This document shows positions 14,455 to 25,898 of a stretch of 64,000 nucleotides of DNA, one piece after another. This DNA is from Candidatus Falkowbacteria bacterium HGW-Falkowbacteria-1 (GTDB lineage: Bacteria > Patescibacteriota > Patescibacteriia > Patescibacteriales > UBA12465). A model generated the notes under the pieces. The model was not told the DNA's origin, did not search any database, and worked only from the letters and a program-made list of their open reading frames with translations. The DNA lies in the NCBI GenBank assembly GCA_002840305.1, contig PHAI01000002.1, forward strand, positions 266,707 through 330,706, written 5' to 3'. Every line of letters begins with the position of its first letter. Position 1 is the first letter of the stretch. Position numbers and translations under genes: made by a program.

Positions 14455-15579
14455 CTAATATTTTACTTTTGTATTTTCATCTATAAAGTGAACCCAAGTT
14501 TTGCCAGAATTAAAAATAAACTCCTCTCCATTTTCATCATAATACCTGGTCCTTGAATTCTCATCATCTTTCTGCCAATAACCACTGTGACAAACGCCAT
14601 CGGAGCAAATCACTGCTGTATTTTTACTGATTAGTTTAATTTTAAGACGAAGCTCACTGTCTAAAATCTCCGTTTCTACAAACTGCAAAATAACATTGCT
14701 GGCAGAAATCTGATCTCCATTATTATCCAGATGTTTTTTACCGGCCAAATCTTTTAAATATAAATTTGCATTCAAATCATAATCCCAACTAATATCATAT
14801 TGTTTTTGTCCGTTTGAAATATCTATTTCAAAATTAGACAAAGCCAAATTAATACTTGGCAAGTCTTTGTCGTTTTTAAACTGCCAGGATTCGAATTTGG
14901 AATTTTCATAATTTCTATCTTTCAAATATTCTTTAATAAGGCCAAAATTGGCCAAAACATTGTGCGGAGCTAAATAATCTTGATAACGCCTAAAATAATC
15001 ACCATTATAAAATTCATTAAAATCTAATAGCTTCTCCTTGGAAATCCTAGCTAAGGCCTCTGGACTACCTCCACAATGAACAAGCATAGCCCCGTATTCT
15101 TTAGCTATATCTAAAAAATAAGGCCTAGCGCTACGAACTGGTCCAATTTCTAAATTGGGCTGCTCATCATTAACTGCAAAAAAAGCCAAATATCTATTTA
15201 TTCCCCCCTCCGCTGGAATATCATAAACCAATTCGGCTGAAGACAAGCCAAATGCCGGACGAGCATCTGGATGATTATCTATAACGGTCGCCACCAAAAA
15301 CGGAGAAATATCACTTTCACTTGGGACTTCTTTGCCGTCTATTAACCGATAAAAACAATTTAAGCAAGCATCATCAGACAAAATATTTTCTTCTTGCAAA
15401 GACTGCTCATCATTAAAAACCTCTTCCGAGCTATTTTTGACAAACAAAAACAAAAAAACTAAAACCAATAAGACAACAGGGGGAATTAAAAAATAAAAAA
15501 GCCTTTTTGGCTTACTCATTTTATTAATTTTATTGATTTCTTCGCCAATTCTTTTTTTAACAAAAATTATCTTAGACAT
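14455..15579 (-). CDS. DUF3048 domain protein (YerB-like)
   Basis: The pattern VIDNHPDARPAFGLSSAELVYDIPAEGGINRYLAFF..PVRSARPYF is characteristic of DUF3048. There is an N-terminal TM segment. Confidence 0.7.
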   Translation of the reverse strand: MSKIIFVKKRIGEEINKINKMSKPKRLFYFLIPPVVLLVLVFLFLFVKNSSEEVFNDEQSLQEENILSDDACLNCFYRLIDGKEVPSESDISPFLVATVIDNHPDARPAFGLSSAELVYDIPAEGGINRYLAFFAVNDEQPNLEIGPVRSARPYFLDIAKEYGAMLVHCGGSPEALARISKEKLLDFNEFYNGDYFRRYQDYLAPHNVLANFGLIKEYLKDRNYENSKFESWQFKNDKDLPSINLALSNFEIDISNGQKQYDISWDYDLNANLYLKDLAGKKHLDNNGDQISASNVILQFVETEILDSELRLKIKLISKNTAVICSDGVCHSGYWQKDDENSRTRYYDENGEEFIFNSGKTWVHFIDENTKVKY

Positions 15580-15585
15580 AAATTT

Positions 15586-16800
15586 CTAAAGTTTTTTTAT
15601 TTCTTCTAGTGTTTCTTTCGCGCATTTTTTCCAAGAAAAGTCTTTGGACCGATTAAGACCCTTGATAATCAATTCTTCTTTCTTGACCGAATCATTTAAA
15701 AGTAATTCTATTTTTGAAAGTAAATCATTAGAATCTAATCTTCTAAAAAATAAGACTGAATCAACTCCTATTTCTTTAAAAACTTCAATATCAGAAGCTA
15801 TTACTGGCACGCCACAAGCCATGGCTTGAAGCAAAGGGATACCAAAGCCTTCATGCAGAGAAGGAAAAATAAAAATTTCAGCTCCACTAAAAATATAAGG
15901 CATATCCTTCTCTTCCACCCAGCCGAGCATTATAACATCATTAAACAAATCTAATTCGGATATCATATATTTGAACTCATCATAACCAAAACCAATATTC
16001 CCAATGAGAACTAATTTCTTTTTACTCTCTTTATTTTTTTCTTTAAAGGAATGGAAAGCTTCAAGCAAAATATTTATATTTTTTTTCTTTTCTATTCGTC
16101 CGGCATACAAAAAAAATGATTGGTTTATACCATAGCTACTAAGAACTTCTTTAATTTTATCTTTATCTTCTATTTTCTGATATAAAGAGTTATTATAGCC
16201 ATTATAAACCATGGCTATTTTTTCACTTTTAATCTTATAAAAATTAAGTATTTCGTTTTTTGTAAAATTTGAAACTGTAATTATTTTTTTTGCTCTTTTT
16301 AAGGCAAATTTAGTTGACCAGTTTAAATAATCTGAAGACTCAAGTCTATATCTTCCATTGGTAAGGATTTTAATAAAAAATTTTATAATTCCCCTCGTTG
16401 AATCTGAGTCGAAAGAAACAACATCGCCACCATAAAGACGCTTGTCTCGCTTAAAGGCAATATCGTGAATGGTCGTTATAGTTTTTTTTGGGAAAAAAAA
16501 TGGAATAGCATGAGCCGGAACAAACAAAACATCAGGAGCGGAAAAAATCATCTCCAAACTTAATCTGCCTAATGTCCAAAAAAATTTAAAAGGCCAATTA
16601 AGAACTTTTATTTTTACATGTTTATTTTCTTCTAAATTTAAATCTTTTAAAAAATATTCCGACAAAGACTTATCGGAATATAAAATGTACTTGTTTTCTT
16701 TATCTATCTCAATTAGATTTTTAATCAAATAATAGGAGTACCATTCGGTCCCTGTTTTAAAATCTCTATTAGCTCTTGATGCATCTATCCCTATTTTCAT
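15586..16800 (-). CDS. Glycosyltransferase, GT-B fold (family 4-like)
   Basis: C-terminal EGFGIPLLQAMACGVPVIASD motif. Confidence 0.8.
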   Translation of the reverse strand: MKIGIDASRANRDFKTGTEWYSYYLIKNLIEIDKENKYILYSDKSLSEYFLKDLNLEENKHVKIKVLNWPFKFFWTLGRLSLEMIFSAPDVLFVPAHAIPFFFPKKTITTIHDIAFKRDKRLYGGDVVSFDSDSTRGIIKFFIKILTNGRYRLESSDYLNWSTKFALKRAKKIITVSNFTKNEILNFYKIKSEKIAMVYNGYNNSLYQKIEDKDKIKEVLSSYGINQSFFLYAGRIEKKKNINILLEAFHSFKEKNKESKKKLVLIGNIGFGYDEFKYMISELDLFNDVIMLGWVEEKDMPYIFSGAEIFIFPSLHEGFGIPLLQAMACGVPVIASDIEVFKEIGVDSVLFFRRLDSNDLLSKIELLLNDSVKKEELIIKGLNRSKDFSWKKCAKETLEEIKKL

Positions 16801-16835
16801 AAAAATAAAACATCGCTTGAATAAAAAAAGCGATG

Positions 16836-17849
16836 CTATTTAGTGGCCAGAATACTTCTTTTATAAGAATCCAAATTATCCAAAGCTATTCCGGTTCCCT
16901 TAGCGACGCAAAGAAGTGGATCGTCAGCAATATAAGCTGAAACTCCTAATGCTCTTGAAAAAAGTTGATCAATATTTTTGAGCAACGCCGTCCCTCCAGT
17001 CAAAACGATTCCCTTGTCTATTATATCAGCCACCAATTCTGGCGGAGTTTGTTGTAATATTTTTTTGGCAGTATTTAAAATTGTTTCTAATTCTCCAGAA
17101 ATGGCCGCAGTAACATCATTGCTATTAACTTCTACAGTTCGAGGAAGCCCACTGACACCATCTCTACCATTTATATCCATAACAAGTTTGTTGTCATCAT
17201 CTAAAAATAAAGCTGAACCAACTTTAATTTTCATTTCTTCAGCCGTTCTCTCTCCAATAACTAAATTATATTTTTTTCTAATATATTCTAAAATTGCTAA
17301 ATCCAATTTATTGCCACCGACCCTAACGGAAGTTGAAGAAACAACACCACCCAAAGATATAACGGCCATCTCAGAAGTCCCTCCACCGATATCAACGACC
17401 ATGTGACCATTGGCAGAGCTGATTGGAATATTGGCCCCAATAGCGGCCGCCACAGGCTCTTTAATGATATACGCAGCTTTGGCTCCAGCAGCAATCGTGG
17501 CTTCTATTACGGCCCTTCTTTCAGTTGATGAAATTCCAGCGGGAACAGCCACCATAACTTCTGGTCTAAAAATTCTAACCTTGCCTAAAGTTTTGTTTAT
17601 AAAATAACGAATCATGGCTTCGGTTGTGCGATAGTCAGCAATGACTCCATCTTTTAGCGGTTTCAAAGCTATGATAGTATCTGGTGTTCTGCCTAGCATA
17701 TCTTTAGCATCGTTTCCGACAGCCAAAATCTTGTTATCATCGATAGAAACAGCAACAACACTAGGTTCGTTAATAACCACGCCTCTTTTTGGCAAATAGA
17801 CCAAAGTATAGGTTGTGCCCAAATCAATTCCGATTCTTTTAGCAAACAT
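16836..17849 (-). CDS. mreB: Actin-like rod-shape protein MreB (orphan copy)
   Basis: IGIDLGTTYT, NEPSVVAV, VDIGGGTSE and VLTGGTALL. Confidence 0.85.
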   Translation of the reverse strand: MFAKRIGIDLGTTYTLVYLPKRGVVINEPSVVAVSIDDNKILAVGNDAKDMLGRTPDTIIALKPLKDGVIADYRTTEAMIRYFINKTLGKVRIFRPEVMVAVPAGISSTERRAVIEATIAAGAKAAYIIKEPVAAAIGANIPISSANGHMVVDIGGGTSEMAVISLGGVVSSTSVRVGGNKLDLAILEYIRKKYNLVIGERTAEEMKIKVGSALFLDDDNKLVMDINGRDGVSGLPRTVEVNSNDVTAAISGELETILNTAKKILQQTPPELVADIIDKGIVLTGGTALLKNIDQLFSRALGVSAYIADDPLLCVAKGTGIALDNLDSYKRSILATK

Positions 17850-17927: not shown

Positions 17928-18944
17928 TTATAATTCTCTAGTTTCTTCGCGATTCTTACTGTTTGCTAGCCTCAATATCATTAACTTCAATTTATAAGAA
18001 TTACCATGTTTAATTAACCCTAAATAAGAATTCAAAGAATCTTTTTTATTACTTTCTTTTAATTTATAAATCATTCTTCTTTTTGTTGATCTTCTTAAAA
18101 CTTTATACTCGGGAAAATTAATCCACCCCAAAAAATCAAGACCAGAAGAAACTGTTTTGACAAACGTTTTTTGAGGATGAATTTCTAATTTTAAATTTAA
18201 AAATAAAAATTCTTTAATCGGATTAATTTTATTCTCTAACCATTCCTTATTATCTGACATTATTACAAAATCATCGGCATAACGAATATAAAATTTGGCC
18301 TTAATTTTATGTTTTATAAATTGATCAAATATATTAAGATAAATATTGGCAAAAAGCTGAGAAGTGAGATTTCCCAATGGCAAACCCTTACCTTTTTTAA
18401 CTTGAAAGCTATAAATAATATTTTGCAAAAGACAAATAATATTTTCATCAGCAATATATTCATTTAAAATACCAAGCAATACTTGATGATCAATACTAGC
18501 AAAAAATTTTCTAATATCTCCTTTTAGCACCCAACAATTTTTGGTATTATTTTTACTAATTTTCAAAAAAAATTTATTAAATCTTGATACAGCTTTGTGC
18601 GTACCCTTATTTAAACGACAAGAATAACTATCAAATATAAAAATTTTATCGAAAAATGGATATAATTTACGATAAATAGCATGATGAAGTAATCGATCGC
18701 GAACATTAGCTTTATGAATATCTCTAATTTTTGGATCAAAAACTTTAAATGCCTTATAGCCACCGTGATTATATTTATGATATAATAGATCGTAATGTAA
18801 ATTTAAAAGATTGCCCATTAAGCTTATTCCAAACAATTGAACATCACGACGTCCACGCTTGCCATTTAGAAATTCGCCCCAAGCGCTTAACAAGTTATCT
18901 AAATCTATAATATCTTCAAATTTATGAGTCAATTTAATTTTCAT
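17928..18944 (-). CDS. DGR reverse transcriptase
   Basis: 338 aa. LPLGNLTSQLFANIYL is the DGR-typical [I/L]GxxxSQ motif. YIRYADDFVIM is the YxDD catalytic box. There is no maturase/endonuclease tail. It is adjacent to TR/VR. Confidence 0.9.
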   Translation of the reverse strand: MKIKLTHKFEDIIDLDNLLSAWGEFLNGKRGRRDVQLFGISLMGNLLNLHYDLLYHKYNHGGYKAFKVFDPKIRDIHKANVRDRLLHHAIYRKLYPFFDKIFIFDSYSCRLNKGTHKAVSRFNKFFLKISKNNTKNCWVLKGDIRKFFASIDHQVLLGILNEYIADENIICLLQNIIYSFQVKKGKGLPLGNLTSQLFANIYLNIFDQFIKHKIKAKFYIRYADDFVIMSDNKEWLENKINPIKEFLFLNLKLEIHPQKTFVKTVSSGLDFLGWINFPEYKVLRRSTKRRMIYKLKESNKKDSLNSYLGLIKHGNSYKLKLMILRLANSKNREETREL

Positions 18945-18957
18945 ACATCTAATTCTA

Positions 18958-18970
18958 CCCCCCCCCCCCC
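18958..18970. repeat. C13 (G13 on the minus strand) homopolymer
   Basis: I counted it directly: ccc at 18958-18960 plus ten c at 18961-18970. It lies between the RT start codon (18944) and the annotated avd start (19021). Confidence 0.95.
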
Positions 18971-19020
18971 TAAATTTACAACTAGCCCCACTCCTTCAAA
19001 AAAGCAAAGATACATATCTT

Positions 19021-19338
19021 TTGTGGTATTCTTATTTTAAAACATTACCCAAAGAACATCGTTTTAGTCTTGGTATTAAAATAGATAACCTTTTTGTAGA
19101 AATAATAGAATTTATTTCTGGAGCATTATATACAAACAAAGATGAAAAAATATTTTATATAAAAACTGCTATCAGAAAAAATGATGCTTTAAAATTACTA
19201 CTTTTAATTCTTTGGGAAACTAAATCAATAGATAATAAAAAATATTTAATGCTTTCCGAAAAAATCAATGAAATAGGTCGTATGCTCGGAGGTTGGGCTG
19301 GGCAAATTATAAAACAAAACTCCTCTATAAAAAAATAG
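19021..19338 (+). CDS. avd: Avd-like accessory variability determinant (four-helix bundle). The N-terminus is probably incomplete as annotated.
   Basis: LPKEHRFSLG..., a helical heptad character and a C-terminal EIGRMLGGWAGQ resemble Avd / 23S-IVS four-helix proteins. The only start is TTG. It lies on the opposite strand to RT, TR and VR. Confidence 0.7.
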   Translation: MWYSYFKTLPKEHRFSLGIKIDNLFVEIIEFISGALYTNKDEKIFYIKTAIRKNDALKLLLLILWETKSIDNKKYLMLSEKINEIGRMLGGWAGQIIKQNSSIKK

Positions 19339-19350
19339 AGGAGTTTTTTT
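19319..19350 (+). terminator. Intrinsic terminator after avd
   Basis: Stem actcctcta (19319-19327) pairs with tagaggagt (19336-19344). The loop is taaaaaaa and a T7 run follows. It abuts the TR boundary at 19351. Confidence 0.6.
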
Positions 19351-19484
19351 GAAACTTGCGAGAGCACAAAAGCAAACCCGTTATCACGATCCCACCTACT
19401 GCCAGAATTGTCATAGTTCGTATTCAGCCAGGAACCACTGCCATCGCGATTAGCGTTGAGCAATAAAGGATCGCCGTCAGAATT
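19351..19484 (-). repeat. DGR template repeat (TR)
   Basis: It is 134 nt and aligns without gaps to 19833-19966. It contains 28 adenines in the minus-strand sense. In frame it encodes NSDGDPLLLNANRDGSGSWLNTNYDNSGSRWDRDNGFAFVLSQV, which is AAY-rich. Confidence 0.9.
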
Positions 19485-19725
19485 ATGCAAAACACCGCCT
19501 ATTACACCGCCCTTTGAATACTCAAACAGGCTGAATATTATTCGGCATCATAATGCCATAGTGTTTTGCACCAAGTTTCGTTATATAGCATCAATATTTC
19601 ACTCTACCTACAGCCTTGGCCGAAGATATTCTCAAAATAATAACGCTCATCACAGTGGCCACCAACCTTGATCAATGACATATTCACTTTGACTGATTCT
19701 ATTTTAACATATTTACAAAATTTAT

Positions 19726-19764
19726 AAAAAAATAGCCTCGGCTTGCTTATGCAATCCGAGGCTA
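19726..19764 (-). terminator. Intrinsic terminator of the DGR target gene
   Basis: tagcctcgg (19733-19741) pairs with ccgaggcta (19756-19764), with an inner ttgc/gcaa pairing. On the minus strand a T7 run follows (A-run 19726-19732 on plus). Confidence 0.7.
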
Positions 19765-19765
19765 A

Positions 19766-19830
19766 AAATCAAAGGGCTAAAGGCCAAGACCTAAAGACTC
19801 AAAGAGTCAAAAAATCAAAAGACTAAGAAC
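19766..19830. repeat. Degenerate ~8-nt periodic repeat array
   Basis: The plus strand reads ggctaaag gccaagac ctaaagac tcaaagag tcaaaaaa tcaaaaga ctaagaac. It lies between the terminator hairpin and the target stop codon. Confidence 0.4.
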
Positions 19831-20443
19831 CCGAAACTTGCGAGAGCACAAAAGCAAACCCGCCACCACGAACCCACCTACTGCCAGAACCGCCACAGTC
19901 CGCATCCAGCCAGGAACCACTGCCATCGCGACCAGCGCTGAGCAATAAAGGATCGCCGTCAGAATCCTTAATAGGTTCGTGCATAACAACAATCCAATAT
20001 AAGCCCATAGCTTCAAGTTCTTTATCAGAGAATTTCTCCCTAAAAAGACAGGCCGCTTCGGCATTTGGTGTGGAAAGTTTGCGATTTTTAGCTTCTTTGC
20101 GGATGTTTTTAGTTATCCTATCGTTGTCGCTAAAAATCTCTCCCTTAAGGACAGCAATTTCATAAGTTACACCATTTGTTGGTTTAAAACTTTTTGAGCA
20201 TAAAATGCTCTTTGCATAATCACTGACGCGGAAGTCTTTACTTTCTAAACGTATAATCCACTGTTCGCCGGTTGCACCATCACTGGTAAGCGAAAAATAA
20301 ATTATACCATTTTCTTCACGCCATTTTTTTTCTGGCTCACTAACCAATGTTTCACCTCGTAAGAAACGAAGGGCACTTTCCATACCACCAAGTTTATTCA
20401 CAATGGCCTCAATTTGTCCTAAATTCAATTCTCCGTATTTCAT
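19823..20443 (-). CDS. DGR variable (target) protein, with a C-terminal CLec-like variable region and no signal peptide
   Basis: 206 aa. The C-terminus DSDGDPLLLSAGRDGSGSWLDADCGGSGSRWVRGGGFAFVLSQVSGS is encoded by the VR. The N-terminus MKYGELNLGQIEAIVNKLGG is hydrophilic. Confidence 0.85.
   Translation of the reverse strand: MKYGELNLGQIEAIVNKLGGMESALRFLRGETLVSEPEKKWREENGIIYFSLTSDGATGEQWIIRLESKDFRVSDYAKSILCSKSFKPTNGVTYEIAVLKGEIFSDNDRITKNIRKEAKNRKLSTPNAEAACLFREKFSDKELEAMGLYWIVVMHEPIKDSDGDPLLLSAGRDGSGSWLDADCGGSGSRWVRGGGFAFVLSQVSGS
19833..19966 (-). repeat. DGR variable repeat (VR)
   Basis: It has 15 mismatches to TR, and every one is at a TR adenine (14 A->G, 1 A->T). They affect 12 codons. 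The 3'-most 30 nt (19833-19862) are identical to TR. Confidence 0.9.
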
Positions 20444-20683: not shown

Positions 20684-21946
20684 TTACTCCTTTCTCAAGG
20701 CATCAACTGGATTGAGTTTAGCTGCTTTTCTGGCCGGAAATATTCCAAAAATAATACCAAAAACAATAGCAAATACAATGGAAACAATAAAAGCTTTTAA
20801 TGGTAAAACTAGTTTCCAATCAAGACCAAAATAATTAGCCCCTAAATAAATTAAAAAAGAAAAAGCTACCCCCAAGATCATCCCTAAAAAAGCACCTATA
20901 AGGGTTATGAGAACCGATTCTGTCAAAAATTGCCTCATAATATCATCAAATTTTGCGCCGACCGCCTTTCTCAGCCCTATTTCGGGTGTTCTTTCGGAAA
21001 CTATGACATACATAACATTTAAAATTCCTACACCACCCACGAGCAAGGATATGGCAACAATTAAAAGCAGTAATATCGTTAATCCATCAGTTATGGTTTT
21101 GCTGGTATCTAACATTTCTTTCATGGTGGTGACTCTAAAATCATCTTTATCGGCATCTGAAATATTGTGATTATCTCTTAAAATATCAGTCATTATTTGT
21201 GCTGTTTCTTCCGCCATATTAGGGTTTTCTACCTGATGTACCATATACATATAATAATCTGTCCCCAGTATCTTCTTTTGCAAAGTTTTTATTGGTAAAA
21301 TTATTGCATCATCAAAACTAAATCCCATATTAGCACCTTTCTTTTTTAAAACTCCAACTACCTTATATTTACTCTTTTTAATAGTAATAATTTTATTTAT
21401 AGGATCCTGATCTTTAAAAATATCTTCGGCGGCATTACTACCCAAAACAACAACTTGAGATAAAGATTTGTCATCATCATCACTAAAAAAATACCCACTG
21501 GCGATTTCCGATTTATCAATTTCTATATAACTAGCACTAACCCCAAAAAGAAATCTTCCCTTAGACTCATTAGCGTAAGAAACCGTTTCTTGCCCCAAAA
21601 CAGCACCGTAGCCATCAATTACATTAGGGATTTTTTTTAAGTCCTCCAAGTCTCTTTCTTTCATGCTGGTTATTTGGGCGCCTCCCGCAACCGCCCTGGC
21701 GCTTTCCGTTTCAGCCTGCATTCCGGTTTTAGTATTTGGCACCCTTATCTCAGTTTGAACAATATTTGTACCAAAAGATTCTATTTGACCGATAATTAAA
21801 CTTCTTATTCCTTCTCCGGCTGAAAAAACAATTACAATGCTAGCTATACCAATAAGCATGCCCAAAACAGTGAGACCAGTTCTCATCTTGTTTTTAAGCA
21901 TCAACTTCAATGATAGTTTTGCAACTTCTATTATTCTCATAAACAA
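20684..21946 (-). CDS. ABC transporter permease, MacB/FtsX type
   Basis: N-terminal TM segment, a large extracytoplasmic domain and a C-terminal FtsX-like 3-TM module. It ends ARKAAKLNPVDALRKE. Confidence 0.85.
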   Translation of the reverse strand: MFMRIIEVAKLSLKLMLKNKMRTGLTVLGMLIGIASIVIVFSAGEGIRSLIIGQIESFGTNIVQTEIRVPNTKTGMQAETESARAVAGGAQITSMKERDLEDLKKIPNVIDGYGAVLGQETVSYANESKGRFLFGVSASYIEIDKSEIASGYFFSDDDDKSLSQVVVLGSNAAEDIFKDQDPINKIITIKKSKYKVVGVLKKKGANMGFSFDDAIILPIKTLQKKILGTDYYMYMVHQVENPNMAEETAQIMTDILRDNHNISDADKDDFRVTTMKEMLDTSKTITDGLTILLLLIVAISLLVGGVGILNVMYVIVSERTPEIGLRKAVGAKFDDIMRQFLTESVLITLIGAFLGMILGVAFSFLIYLGANYFGLDWKLVLPLKAFIVSIVFAIVFGIIFGIFPARKAAKLNPVDALRKE

Positions 21947-21956
21947 TAAAATCTAA

Positions 21957-23213
21957 TTACTCATAACTGAGAGCTTCAACCGGTTCTAATTTACTAGCTT
22001 TTTTGGCTGGATAAATACCAAAGATTAAACCAATCAAGGCCGAGACTGAAACTGCTAAAAATATTGAAAAAAAACTGACTTTGAAGCTCCAACTATAACC
22101 CAAATAAACAACAATGAGGGAAATAATCCAAGACAAAATAATTCCCAAAATTATACCAATTATTCCTCCTATTAAAGTTAAAAAGACTGCCTCCATTAAA
22201 AACTGTGTGGTTACGTTTTTATTTGATGCTCCTAATGCTTTTCTAAGACCAATTTCTCTAGTCCTCTCATTTACACTAATAAGCATAATATTCATAATCC
22301 CTACGCCACCAACAACAAGAGACAAGCTTGCCATCATAGCCAAAAAATAACGAAGAGCATCCGTTACCGTCCTCATTAAGTCCAAAAGTTCAGCGGCGGT
22401 TCTAACGGTAAAGTCGTCGCTGTCACCACTCTGATCACTTATACCATGACTATCTCTCAAAAAAATCTCTATTTCAGAAACAGCTTGATTAATATCAACC
22501 GATTCTTCTGTTTTAATGACCAACTTATTGAAATAATTTATAGCTAATATACTTTTTTGTACCGTTTTAGCTGGCAAAAAAATCATATCATCAACATTTT
22601 GGAAAAGAACTTGCCCTCTCTCTTCTATAACTCCAATAACCTCAAATATCCGATTTTTTAATTTAATTTTTTCTCCAATTGGATTTGTTTCTCCAAACAA
22701 TTCTTGTTTAACAGTATATCCAAGAACTACCACTTTGCTCAAATTATTGTCCTCTTCTCTGCTAAAGAATCTACCGCTTTCTAGGGAAGTCTTATTTAAA
22801 TCCAAATAAGAACTGCTAACGCCCTCCATATTAACTCCATAAGAATTTCCTCGCCAAGAAGCAATAGCAGAACTGGTAATTGAAGCAGACAAATATGAGA
22901 TACCAATTAGTTCTTGGTTACTTTCTAAAAGTTTTAGATCATTATCATCTAAAGATGTTACTACTATGCCCATGACAGATGTCGGTGGGCCACTATCATC
23001 TGACTTGCCAGGAGTAACAGCTATAAGATTGGTTCCAATGCCCTCTATCTGCCCCAGAATTAAACTCTGAGCTCCAGCACCAACAGATATTATTACAATA
23101 ACAGAAGCCACACCAATAATAATACCAAGCATAGTCAAAAAACTCCTGGCCTTATTGCTAGTCAAAGATCTTATCGATGTTTTAAATATTTGTTTTATAG
23201 AAAGAAAAATCAT
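21957..23213 (-). CDS. ABC transporter permease, MacB/FtsX type (second copy)
   Basis: Same architecture as the first copy. It ends AKKASKLEPVEALSYE. Confidence 0.85.
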   Translation of the reverse strand: MIFLSIKQIFKTSIRSLTSNKARSFLTMLGIIIGVASVIVIISVGAGAQSLILGQIEGIGTNLIAVTPGKSDDSGPPTSVMGIVVTSLDDNDLKLLESNQELIGISYLSASITSSAIASWRGNSYGVNMEGVSSSYLDLNKTSLESGRFFSREEDNNLSKVVVLGYTVKQELFGETNPIGEKIKLKNRIFEVIGVIEERGQVLFQNVDDMIFLPAKTVQKSILAINYFNKLVIKTEESVDINQAVSEIEIFLRDSHGISDQSGDSDDFTVRTAAELLDLMRTVTDALRYFLAMMASLSLVVGGVGIMNIMLISVNERTREIGLRKALGASNKNVTTQFLMEAVFLTLIGGIIGIILGIILSWIISLIVVYLGYSWSFKVSFFSIFLAVSVSALIGLIFGIYPAKKASKLEPVEALSYE

Positions 23214-23259
23214 AAAAGAAAAAATAAGTCATCTGTGCGGATATTAAAAGACTCAAAGA

Positions 23260-23973
23260 CTACTTCAAGGTCTCTCCGTTTGCTGCAAAACGTCTATTCT
23301 TTATATTCTCATCACTAACGATTATGCCATCTTTTATTCTAATAATTCTTTTGGCGTGTTCAGCAGTAAAAGTCTCGTGAGTTACTAAAATTATAGTATT
23401 GCCGGCATCGTTTAATTTTTGCAAAATCTCCATAACCTGAATACCAGATTTAGAATCTAAATTACCAGTTGGTTCGTCGGCGAATATAACAGAAGGCTTA
23501 TTAACCAAGGCCCTAGCAATGGCTACTCTTTGTTTTTCTCCTCCAGAAATTTGATTAGTATAATAATCAAGTCTATGACCGAGACCAACACTACGTAAAA
23601 CGTCACTCGCTCTTTCCTTCATATTTCTTTTATTATCGGAATAAGTAAGTGGTAAAATAACGTTATCCAAAACTGTTGTTTTAGGAAGTAGATTAAATGC
23701 TTGGAAAACAAAACCTATTTTTTTATTACGTAAGTCGGCCAACTTATCATCAGAAAGAGACGAAACATCCTTGTCTTCTAGTTTATAGATACCAGAGCTA
23801 GACCTATCTAAAAGCCCCAAAATATGCATCAGAGTTGATTTACCGGATCCAGACGGCCCCATAATAGAAACAAACTCTCCGAAATCAATATTAAAAGAAA
23901 CGCCATGGAGAACTTTGGTTGCTAATTCACCAGAACCATATTCTTTTTTTAAATTTTCAACCCTAATTAACAT
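23260..23973 (-). CDS. ABC transporter ATP-binding protein (MacB/LolD-like)
   Basis: Walker A GPSGSGKST, signature LSGGEKQRVAIARAL and Walker B VIFADEPTGNLD. Confidence 0.9.
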   Translation of the reverse strand: MLIRVENLKKEYGSGELATKVLHGVSFNIDFGEFVSIMGPSGSGKSTLMHILGLLDRSSSGIYKLEDKDVSSLSDDKLADLRNKKIGFVFQAFNLLPKTTVLDNVILPLTYSDNKRNMKERASDVLRSVGLGHRLDYYTNQISGGEKQRVAIARALVNKPSVIFADEPTGNLDSKSGIQVMEILQKLNDAGNTIILVTHETFTAEHAKRIIRIKDGIIVSDENIKNRRFAANGETLK

Positions 23974-23984
23974 AATCTTGTATT

Positions 23985-25898
23985 TTAATTGCCATTTTTA
24001 ATAGCAGTAATTATTTTATCACCCTCTTTTATGTCGCCAGAAATTATTTCATACATAGCCTGGTCACCACCCATACCAACTTCAACCTCAACTTCATTAA
24101 TCTTGGAACCACTTAAAACTCTTACAATTTTTTTGCCATCATCTTTTTCTATTATAGCTCTAAAAGGAACAGAAAAGACATCATTTTTTTCATTACTAGT
24201 AATAACAACATTAGCGGTCATACCAGCCTTAACTATTAAGTTGTTTTTTATTAATTCGTCTTCAGAAAAAACAACTTTAGTTTTATAGTAAATAATGTCG
24301 GAAATGGAAGTAGCGGCCGGCTCAATAAAATATACCTTACCAGAGACTTTGTTGTCAGAATTAAAAGCATCAAAACTTATTTCTGCTTCGTTACCAATTT
24401 TTATCTTAGAAATATCTGATTCGGAAATGAATAGTTCTACTTCGAAATCATTTTCAGTAAGCAAAACCATAAAAGGAACGCTATTTAAAACCTGTTCGCC
24501 TATTTCGTAATTTATTTTAACTACTTTACCGCTAATTGGTGCTTGCAACTTATTTTCTTCTATTTGTTTGTTTATAGCATCTAACGATGAGCTCGCCTGA
24601 TCAACTTGCGCCTGAACTAATTTAAGATCCTCGCTCCTAGCTGGTGATTTTAACTTATCTAGCTGTAGTTTATAAACTTCATAAGACTTTGAAGCTGAGT
24701 CAAACTTTGAATTAGCAAGAATCAACTGCTGATTACTACTAATTTTAAGCAAGGCAAAACTATCCTCTGCCGCCGAAATAGCGTCCGACAAAGCAATCTC
24801 GGCTTTGTAAACAGCGTCTTGAGCATTAGAAAAATTAATATCCTTGTTTAATATAGAGCTGTTTAAAGCAGATAAAGAATTTAAATTGGAACTAATGGCC
24901 GCATTGACCAAGCTAGTATGCGAACTAACGGAAGACTTAAAACTATCAAGAGATGCTTGCGGAAAAGATGATGAAATTATTGAATTCTCCAAAGCATTAA
25001 AGCAACTGTTTAGAGTCTTAAAAGCTTGACTCAAAAAACTAGACATACTACTAGCGGCTTGATTAGCTAAATTTTTTTCATAACTAACCCTTAAAAGTGC
25101 CAAGTCTAATTCAAGGCCAGAAACCATAGAAACTGCTAAATCATAATTCTTGCTTGTTTCATCCTTATAATAAGAATTTTTAACACTAAAAACCTCCTTT
25201 ACATCTTCATCGTCAACAATTCTCTTCACAGCGTCCAGGGCCGACTTACCAACCGTCAAATTATAGTCCAAAGAACTAACCAAAGAATTATAAGAATTAT
25301 TTACATTCTGTAAGCCAGTTTTTTCAGTATTAGATAAATTCAATCTAGCAGAATCAACTGCCTGTTTTATAGATAGTGGGTTTTCACTATTTGAAGATTT
25401 TAAATCACTCAAATTTTTTTCAGCTTGAGACAAGTTTTCACTAACAATTTTTTCACTTTGGTCTAGGTCTTTCTTGGCCGACTCATAAGCAAGCTTAGCT
25501 TGAGAAACCTGAGCTTCTAAAATTCTAACCTCCTCTATTGAAGCCCCCTTTACAAGTTTTTCTCTATTAGCGCTAGCTATATTTAAAGAAGCTAAGACTT
25601 CATCTTTTTTGATTAATAAGGAAGAATAATCAAGTTCTGCCAATATCTGACCACTATCAACCTCATCACCTATTGAAACATTTAGATTATTTAATCTTCC
25701 TGCTTGCATAAAATTCAAGTTTAACTCCTTGCTAGCACGAACAGCCCCAACCTCACTAACAGTTTGCACTAATTTCTGTTTTTTTAAATCAATAGTTACG
25801 TATTCGGTTTTATCCTTTTTCGATAAAACAAAAAATAAAACCACTAACAAAAAAGCGGCAATAGAAAATATTATAATAATTTTTTTCCTTTTCTTCAT
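23985..25898 (-). CDS. HlyD/MacA-like periplasmic adaptor with an unusually long Ser/Ala-rich coiled coil
   Basis: N-terminal TM segment, a lipoyl-like region (GQILAELD .. APISGKV) split by about 350 aa of coiled coil, and a C-terminal beta-barrel region. 637 aa. Confidence 0.7.
   Translation of the reverse strand: MKKRKKIIIIFSIAAFLLVVLFFVLSKKDKTEYVTIDLKKQKLVQTVSEVGAVRASKELNLNFMQAGRLNNLNVSIGDEVDSGQILAELDYSSLLIKKDEVLASLNIASANREKLVKGASIEEVRILEAQVSQAKLAYESAKKDLDQSEKIVSENLSQAEKNLSDLKSSNSENPLSIKQAVDSARLNLSNTEKTGLQNVNNSYNSLVSSLDYNLTVGKSALDAVKRIVDDEDVKEVFSVKNSYYKDETSKNYDLAVSMVSGLELDLALLRVSYEKNLANQAASSMSSFLSQAFKTLNSCFNALENSIISSSFPQASLDSFKSSVSSHTSLVNAAISSNLNSLSALNSSILNKDINFSNAQDAVYKAEIALSDAISAAEDSFALLKISSNQQLILANSKFDSASKSYEVYKLQLDKLKSPARSEDLKLVQAQVDQASSSLDAINKQIEENKLQAPISGKVVKINYEIGEQVLNSVPFMVLLTENDFEVELFISESDISKIKIGNEAEISFDAFNSDNKVSGKVYFIEPAATSISDIIYYKTKVVFSEDELIKNNLIVKAGMTANVVITSNEKNDVFSVPFRAIIEKDDGKKIVRVLSGSKINEVEVEVGMGGDQAMYEIISGDIKEGDKIITAIKNGN

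Follow-up and report, generated by a model that had tools for sequence, protein, structure and literature searches.

A diversity-generating retroelement of standard layout in a Falkowbacteria genome, with a candidate separate template RNA and a conserved structured 5′ leader

A 64,000-nucleotide stretch of the genome of Candidatus Falkowbacteria bacterium HGW-Falkowbacteria-1 (contig PHAI01000002.1, positions 266,707 to 330,706; 32% GC), hereafter the window, carries a complete diversity-generating retroelement (DGR) at positions 17928-20443. All coordinates given here are positions within the window. Read along the minus strand, the cassette comprises a target gene that ends in a variable repeat (VR), a terminator, about 240 nt of intervening sequence, the template repeat (TR), an inverted avd gene, and the gene for the reverse transcriptase (RT). 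It is an ordinary member of the DGR clade of the candidate phyla radiation (CPR, or Patescibacteria) and has the standard layout of that clade, termed B3. The best explanation of the data, and one that we consider likely, is that this standard cassette produces the TR as part of an RNA of its own, with a structured 5′ leader of that RNA acting as a permuted form of the Spacer (Sp) of the Bordetella phage BPP-1 DGR. A broader proposal is offered more tentatively, at somewhat less than even confidence: that the RNA of CPR DGRs, the most abundant natural DGR lineage, is a circular permutation of that of BPP-1, with the primer and stop domain located in the 5′ leader, that it is made as an independent transcript, and that the RT promoter may be subject to phase variation through a conserved poly-G tract, by which the hypermutation machinery could itself be turned on and off.

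According to the preferred model, the cassette would be expressed from at least three transcription units. The first would comprise the target gene and end at a terminator designated T1. The second would be a non-coding TR RNA of about 385 nt, which would start about 7 nt after an extended -10 box (19709-19701) and consist of a structured leader of about 210 nt, the 134-nt TR, and an end at a terminator (19350-19311) that lies antisense within the 3′ end of avd. The third would include avd and RT, transcribed divergently from a 76-nt region containing a C13/G13 run. The RT and Avd proteins would then act on the TR RNA in trans. By comparison of relatives, two adjacent strands of the leader, S1 and S2, pair with partners at the 3′ end of the TR, or in most relatives just after it (S1′), and immediately 5′ of the TR (S2′), and these duplexes would be the counterparts of the BPP-1 TR:Sp duplex, which serves in priming, and of the BPP-1 avd:Sp duplex, at which cDNA synthesis stops. 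Priming would take place on the leader, at the 3′-terminal nucleotide of S1, after which the TR would be copied and synthesis would stop at S2:S2′. In effect, the Spacer domain would have moved from the 3′ side of the TR to its 5′ side, and a Spacer equivalent in this position would leave the 3′ side free for a convergent avd.

Cassette Architecture Among CPR Relatives

The gene order of the cassette is that of a published class. Architecture B3 is defined as TR-(avd)-RT, where parentheses denote the reverse strand, and comprises 90% of the CPR DGRs surveyed (Wu et al., 2018, NAR 46:11, PMC5758913, Fig. 5). The window cassette has the order TR, avd, RT, with avd opposite to both TR and RT, as in this class. 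An alignment of RT sequences (A1) provided 80 related loci from different species-level genomes, with RTs 56-69% identical to that of the window; these are the relatives referred to throughout. Upstream DNA is sufficient in 77 of these loci, and in 76 of them an avd homolog is the immediate upstream neighbor of RT, on the opposite strand. A VR/TR pair was detectable in 55 loci, all of which show the full order of VR, spacer, TR (on the RT strand), reversed avd and RT, with a gap of 255-431 nt between VR and TR. The initial annotation of this DNA had identified every element of the cassette to within a few bases. It had, however, described the architecture as atypical, a view that it would have given up if related elements showed the orientation to be common and well described. 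Given the published class and the relatives counted above, that description was mistaken.

A DGR whose components lie on different strands needs at least two transcription units, and co-transcription of TR and RT is unnecessary (Wu et al., 2018, PMC5758913). The initial annotation had proposed three readings of the inverted avd, the last of which was a rearranged cassette. That the cassette is rearranged, misassembled or decayed, and that avd owes its orientation to an assembly error or a recent inversion, is so improbable that it can be set aside. Nothing speaks for it beyond the difference from the Bordetella phage layout. Two independent assemblies (L118, Logan SRR3546449; L119, JGI 3300029821) are base-identical to the window across 5 kb, and the same arrangement recurs in 76 other genomes, each assembled independently. 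Together, these observations exclude both a private rearrangement and the misassembly or inversion at 19000-19350 that the initial annotation had named as a finding that would refute it. In addition, all open reading frames (ORFs) of the cassette are intact, and VR and TR differ at adenines only.

The Structured 5′ Leader of the Proposed TR RNA

When the VR-TR spacers of the relatives are aligned, a repeat array, a terminator and a -10 box are seen to be followed by about 200 nt of strongly conserved sequence that extends up to the TR. The corresponding segment of the window (19694->19485, minus strand, about 210 nt) is recognized by covariation and by a covariance model, R1, as a structured RNA, the 5′ leader of the proposed TR RNA. 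Its 5′ half contains two similar hairpins, A (19679-19658) and B (19627-19606), while its 3′ half is closed by the 12-bp helix S2:S2′. Strands S1 (19579-19572) and S2 (19571-19560) are contiguous, and S2′ (19496-19485) ends exactly where the TR begins. A further hairpin (19557-19544) and a helix that encloses GAGUAUUCAA (19533-19505) lie between S2 and S2′, all on the minus strand. The loops of hairpins A and B are near-identical 12-nt sequences, YGGYUAMGGYUU, on covarying stems. From their sequence these twin loops look like an internal duplication and may constitute a repeated protein-binding site.

Support for the leader structure comes from several comparisons. RNAalifold applied to 55 leaders predicts 38 pairs, 34 of which show compensatory changes. 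In an alignment restricted to 30 cleaner sequences (A3), a 55-pair structure is obtained in which 93.6% of cells are paired, compared with 71% after column shuffling (none of 500 shuffles reached the observed value) and 39-49% when partners are slid; 45 of the 55 pairs have changed on both sides. The model R1, built from the A3 structure, finds one strong site in the 64-kb window, at 19472-19701 on the minus strand (168 bits, E = 1e-43). It also matches 71 of the 80 related loci, with a single site in each, always on the RT strand and just before the TR, and 16 of these 71 were outside the set from which the model was built. The nine loci without a match are those lacking upstream sequence and one with a truncated RT. 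Covariation statistics are equally strong on an alignment of 71 sequences (A4). The initial annotation had found about 240 nt without a convincing ORF in this part of the cassette. The absence of an ORF stands, but by covariation and by R1 the region is a conserved structured RNA.

Other identities for this segment were considered and rejected. A plus-strand ORF at 19456-19671 has no Pfam hit, and the stop-free stretches of the relatives are scattered over both strands and all frames, unlike a coding region. Comparison of the window region (at a permissive E-value) and of 27 related loci with the 4227 families of Rfam gave no family at its gathering score. A partial match to RT-7 (RF03028) at 19580-19635 on the minus strand reaches 21 bits against a gathering score of 116.8 and is absent from the relatives, and it was dismissed as chance. 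Literature searches returned no description of a leader RNA in CPR DGRs, Paul et al. (2017, Nat Microbiol 2:17045) being outside their coverage. As far as could be checked, the leader is thus undescribed, and it is absent from Rfam.

Predicted Transcription Start and End of the TR RNA

A promoter for the TR RNA is predicted at 19728->19701 on the minus strand. It consists of a -35-like TTTATA (19728-19723), a 16-nt spacer, and the extended -10 element TGTTAAAAT (19709->19701), the latter picked up by a promoter consensus scan. The aligned -10 box reads TAnnnT in 55 of 56 loci, and 33 of the 56 match the extended consensus TGnTAnnnT, for which the background is 1.6%; in most loci this conserved box lies about 230-240 nt before the TR. 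The initial annotation had seen no convincing TR promoter within 19485-19725, an interval in which TGTTAAAAT is present and which carries the conserved box in relatives.

The 3′ end of the RNA is predicted at an intrinsic terminator (19350-19311; inverted repeat I10) composed of a 13-bp stem (19347-19316) and a U-tract. The hairpin, which extends over 19313-19350, adjoins the 3′ end of the TR, and its minus-strand reading is scored as a terminator. In 52 of 56 loci the TR strand carries a GC-rich hairpin with TTTTGTTTT behind it, 0-20 nt after the TR, with the consensus ...GGGAGAG UUUUGUUUU. The hairpin had initially been taken for the terminator of avd, abutting the TR, and its conservation next to the TR of homologous elements had been put forward as a check. 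Both the adjacency and the conservation were borne out, but a terminator-like tail on the avd strand is present in only 3 of 56 loci. In the window itself, the hairpin is flanked by both A7 and U-tracts, giving a T-run on the avd strand as well, and by its sequence this terminator can be read as bidirectional, ending both of the convergent transcripts. Hairpin and U-tract overlap the last 10 or so codons of avd and its stop codon, and the terminator has thus been maintained despite the coding constraint on the other strand. The U-tract corresponds to Lys-Gln-Asn codons near the C-terminus of Avd, a dual constraint on a single stretch of DNA. Snap-back priming, with the terminator U-tract folding onto the A7 run, would be possible in the window; the A-run is not conserved in the relatives, and snap-back was rejected as a general mechanism.

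TR and RT lie on the same strand only 406 nt apart, and a TR-RT co-transcript was the second of the readings proposed initially. In that case transcripts begun at the TR promoter, or reading through from upstream in the target gene, would cross the hairpin, run antisense through avd and reach RT. This would place TR and RT on one RNA, as in the Bordetella phage, and would down-regulate avd through antisense pairing or transcriptional interference. Intrinsic terminators are rarely 100% efficient, and the 3′ ends of the TR RNA and of the avd mRNA overlap by about 40 nt, making some antisense interaction unavoidable. Against a co-transcript stand the TR-strand hairpin and U-tract, conserved as described above in spite of the avd codons that they occupy, and a -10-like box conserved 6-25 nt before the RT start codon, which in one lineage is TGTTATAAT and indicates that RT has its own promoter. 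Nor, as noted, do TR and RT need to be co-transcribed (Wu et al., 2018, PMC5758913). We therefore regard the co-transcript as distinctly unlikely. The conserved promoter, the conserved TR-strand terminator and the separate RT promoter region instead favor a discrete TR RNA, in agreement with the first of the initial readings, in which a separate TR RNA ends at the hairpin and RT acts in trans.

Duplexes That Bracket the TR

In the BPP-1 DGR RNA, TR 118-121 is paired with Sp 53-56, and cDNA synthesis begins at the 2′-OH of an internal adenosine, Sp A56; the adjacent Sp 59-70, two bases on, pairs with 11 nt just upstream of the TR to form the avd:Sp “cPRT Stop” (Handa et al., bioRxiv 10.1101/2023.10.23.563531). 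Two duplexes of corresponding position are found in the CPR loci, formed with the leader. The first links S2 to the 12 nt immediately 5′ of the TR (S2′), with 10 of its 12 positions covarying. The second emerged from a column scan of the leader against the TR 3′ region, in which a conserved A-rich strand immediately 5′ of S2 (consensus AAAUGAAGA) was found to pair with the sequence directly following the TR (consensus UCUUCAUUU). The columns of this S1 duplex show three to four pair types each, and the scan recovered the AAAUGAAG/CUUCAUUU duplex. A pairing seen by eye, between a leader loop GAGAGU and an ACUCUC found after the TR in many loci, was unrecovered by the scan and was discarded.

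Locus by locus, S1 is matched to its own flank. The energy of the S1 duplex has a median of -7.9 kcal/mol for cognate combinations vs. -5.1 kcal/mol for non-cognate ones (Mann-Whitney p = 2e-14). With the register fixed, complementarity between the S1 6-mer and the TR 3′ flank of the same locus is complete in 41 of 55 cases, compared with 17% for non-cognate flanks, and of the 29 distinct S1 sequences 20 are matched by the flank. Examples of matched S1 and flank sequences include AATACA/TGTATT, CATACG/CGTATG, ATTTTC/GAAAAT, AUAACA/UGUUAU, and CUUUCU/GGAAAG. In the window, S1 is GAAACUUG, abutting S2, and it pairs perfectly with S1′, CAAGUUUC (19358-19351, minus strand), in a duplex of -9.1 kcal/mol. 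When the whole 385-nt window RNA is folded without constraints, the minimum free energy (MFE) structure (-123.2 kcal/mol, z = -4.8) contains S1:S1′ stacked on S2:S2′, along with hairpins A and B and the terminator.

The leader could be a real structured RNA with a different function, either regulatory or stabilizing or as a scaffold for Avd or RT, while priming and stop would use sequence at or beyond the 3′ hairpin. Handa et al. predicted stem-loops just downstream of the TR together with duplexes between upstream and downstream sequence, in many DGRs, CPR members included, and the hairpin at 19350-19316 is exactly where such a stem-loop would be expected. The shared 12-nt loop motif of the two leader hairpins, resembling as it does a repeated protein-binding site, would also suit a scaffold. 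Conversely, the U-tract that follows the hairpin in nearly all loci should end the RNA and leave no Sp-like 3′ domain. Moreover, the 12 nt 5′ of the TR pair with the leader rather than with downstream sequence, the strand next to S2 covaries with the TR 3′ flank, and the order and polarity of both BPP-1 duplexes are thereby reproduced. This alternative is unlikely in our estimation, if less so than the co-transcript. The survey of Handa et al. was limited to the 40 nt before and the 100 nt after the TR (bioRxiv 10.1101/2023.10.23.563531), and with this span it would miss S1 and S2 and read the hairpin after the TR as an Avd-binding stem-loop, which may be an additional role of this hairpin.

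A number of points weigh against the model of a separate TR RNA with a permuted Spacer. CPR DGRs have been reported to have Avd-binding stem-loops and stop duplexes formed from sequence downstream of the TR (bioRxiv 10.1101/2023.10.23.563531), and this prediction would give the 19350-19311 hairpin a different or additional role. The start, end and independence of the TR RNA are deduced from sequence motifs and their conservation, and the part assigned to the leader in priming is drawn by analogy with BPP-1; the leader helices are established by covariation, and it is the roles of these helices that are conjectural. In the window the register of S1 is shifted, in that its partner is the last 8 nt of the TR and not the flank, as it is in most relatives, and the window accordingly fails the fixed-register S1 test. 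The leader may already be described in Paul et al. (2017, Nat Microbiol 2:17045). Finally, the VR is identical in the window and in the two other assemblies of the same genome (L118 and L119), which gives no VR variation to suggest that this copy is active. With these points taken into account, a separate TR RNA bearing a permuted Spacer is still the reading that we favor.

The avd and RT Genes and the Intervening Poly-G Tract

The avd gene (19021-19338, plus strand) encodes 105 aa from a TTG start and is convergent with TR and divergent from RT. Its product matches the Pfam family bAvd (PF22296) with E = 1.3e-12 and 48.6 bits, above the cut-off of 40. Relatives begin with an ATG and the sequence M-x-x-Y-K-L-W, compared with which the window gene is about 5 codons shorter at the N-terminus; the homologous codons upstream of it are present without a start codon. 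The RT gene (18944->17928, minus strand) encodes 338 aa with an RVT_1 domain (E = 2e-25). The best match in the PDB is the Bordetella phage bRT, 8ub7 (E = 1.7e-39, residues 10-296), and the protein carries the motif LGNLTSQ, within LPLGNLTSQ, which fits the DGR pattern [ILV]GxxxSQ. More than 8000 RT homologs were found, the named ones being from CPR phyla.

The 76-nt region between avd and RT contains a C13 run (18958-18970), which reads G13 on the RT strand. A promoter-like site for RT is present at 18981->18952 on the minus strand and consists of TTGTAA, an 18-nt spacer with the G13 at its end, and TAGAAT, with the ATG 7 nt further on. What is conserved is the presence of a repeat rather than its sequence: about 70 of 77 relatives have runs of G8-G14 at the same place, and three have (AG)n or (CT)n there. 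Across loci L001-L080 the repeat is situated about 10-25 nt upstream of the RT start, directly before a TA-rich -10-like box, and in many relatives the succession is G-run, TAnAAT, 6-7 nt, and ATG. In a lineage without the G-run (L081-L090), TGTTATAAT is followed by 7 nt and ATG, an arrangement that supports both the assignment of the RT promoter and a leaderless RT mRNA. No Shine-Dalgarno sequence is found at the RT start, and the RT mRNA is probably leaderless. A conserved avd promoter could not be defined in the intergenic alignment of the relatives.

By its position and its variability, the poly-G tract may be a slipped-strand phase-variation switch acting on expression of RT and possibly of avd. 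Among contigs with identical RT and flanks, tract length differs by ±1 in two of five groups (G9 vs. G8 and G9 vs. G10) and is invariant in the other three; homopolymer lengths are error-prone in assemblies, and the two differences could be assembly errors. Literature searches returned no paper on a homopolymer tract at DGR RT promoters.

Target Gene, Repeats and Genomic Context

The target gene (20443->19823, minus strand) is an ORF of 206 aa with the VR at its 3′ end. No Pfam domain was found in the protein, nor any CLec relative by sequence search of the PDB, where the N-terminal part gives a weak Ig-like match only. The VR (19966->19833, minus strand; repeat family D1) is 134 nt long and 89% identical to the TR (19484->19351, minus strand), which is of the same length and lies 482 nt downstream. 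The VR is in frame with the target ORF (frame 0, ORF offset 477) and ends 8 nt before the stop codon. All 15 mismatches between the two repeats are at TR adenines, 14 being A>G and one A>T. In the 55 relatives, 949 of 1009 VR/TR mismatches are A>N, and among these substitutions A is replaced by G in 58%, by T in 23%, and by C in 19%; the 14 of 15 A>G changes in the window are an extreme of this clade-wide bias.

Between the VR and T1 is an array of degenerate units of about 8 nt (19832->19765, minus strand) with the core YTTTRR / CTTTGA / CTTGG. Essentially all 55 relatives have the same kind of array after the VR, comprising 4-8 degenerate units of about 8 nt with cores CTTTGA / CTTGG / CTTAG; among the 6-mers, CCTTTG and CTTTGA occur most often (37 each), followed by CCTTGG (24). 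The period is not divisible by 3, and the array of the window is positioned past the stop codon. It could, as a speculation, help in recognizing the end of the VR, by analogy with the initiation of mutagenic homing (IMH) element and hairpin of the phage. The intrinsic terminator T1 of the target gene follows (19764->19726, minus strand; inverted repeat I13), with a stem at 19764-19733 and then T7. In 43 of 56 loci, the 75 nt preceding the TR promoter include a terminator-like site.

The genes that flank the cassette (14455-17849 and 20684-25898) are of chromosomal housekeeping types, and no signs of phage or plasmid are seen among them. One flank has MreB and a glycosyltransferase, and the other has MacB/FtsX-type ABC permeases, an ABC ATPase and an HlyD-like protein.

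Significance and Comparison with Known Systems

The gene layout is ordinary, being that of a standard CPR DGR cassette as published in 2017-2018, and any novelty would lie in the RNA model and the promoter tract. The comparison of relatives provides a testable transcript map and an RNA model for B3, the class that covers most CPR DGRs. To our knowledge, there is no biochemical work on DGRs of this class. If the leader is indeed a permuted Bordetella Spacer, this would explain how avd can sit inverted between TR and RT, define the minimal RNA for reconstituting a very compact DGR (RT of 338 aa, Avd of 105 aa), and show that permutation is compatible with the RT-Avd-RNA architecture. Targeted hypermutation may also be under an additional level of control, to judge from the conserved poly-G tract.

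Promoters that vary in phase through simple sequence repeats (SSRs) include those with poly-G/C tracts in the spacers of Neisseria porA and opc, and the (TA)n tract in the overlapping divergent promoters of hifA and hifB in Haemophilus influenzae. Similarly, the homopolymer of the window is placed between a -35-like and a -10-like box, within a short stretch common to two divergent genes, and tracts of this type vary from 8 to 14 between species and may vary by ±1 between near-identical strains. In contrast to these systems, the genes controlled would be the mutator machinery (RT and perhaps avd) rather than a surface antigen, and the hosts are CPR bacteria.

Compared with the B3 DGRs of CPR bacteria (Wu et al., 2018; DGR clade 2 of Roux et al., 2021, PMC8144416), the window cassette has the same gene order and orientation, without any difference in order, and the target gene is likewise upstream on the RT strand. 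The host group is shared, as relatives of the window RT carry the names Komeilibacteria, Falkowbacteria and Yanofskybacteria, among others, and the targets of these DGRs are reported to be without a recognizable domain, as is that of the window. The TR promoter, the structured 5′ leader, the TR-strand terminator inside avd, and the poly-G tract are undescribed in the publications on B3 DGRs that were examined.

With the BPP-1 DGR (Handa et al., 2018/2024, PDB 8ub7-8ube; Rfam motif RT-10, Weinberg et al., 2017), the window cassette shares a homologous RT (E = 1.7e-39), Avd, and adenine-specific mutagenesis. As in BPP-1, a single RNA strand read 5′ to 3′ pairs first with the 3′ end of the TR and then with about 12 nt upstream of it. 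No similarity of the window RNA to RT-10 or to any other RT motif is found by sequence or in Rfam, and the space between TR and RT holds no BPP-1-type 3′ Spacer, the TR being followed by the terminator hairpin and antisense avd. The clamping strand of BPP-1 resides in a 140-nt Spacer 3′ of the TR, and avd, TR and brt are co-oriented there, whereas in the window it is found in the 210-nt leader 5′ of the TR, the RNA would end about 40 nt after the TR, and avd is convergent. The clamp formed by S1:S1′ and S2:S2′ is thus best regarded as a functional analogy to BPP-1 and not as membership of the same RNA family.

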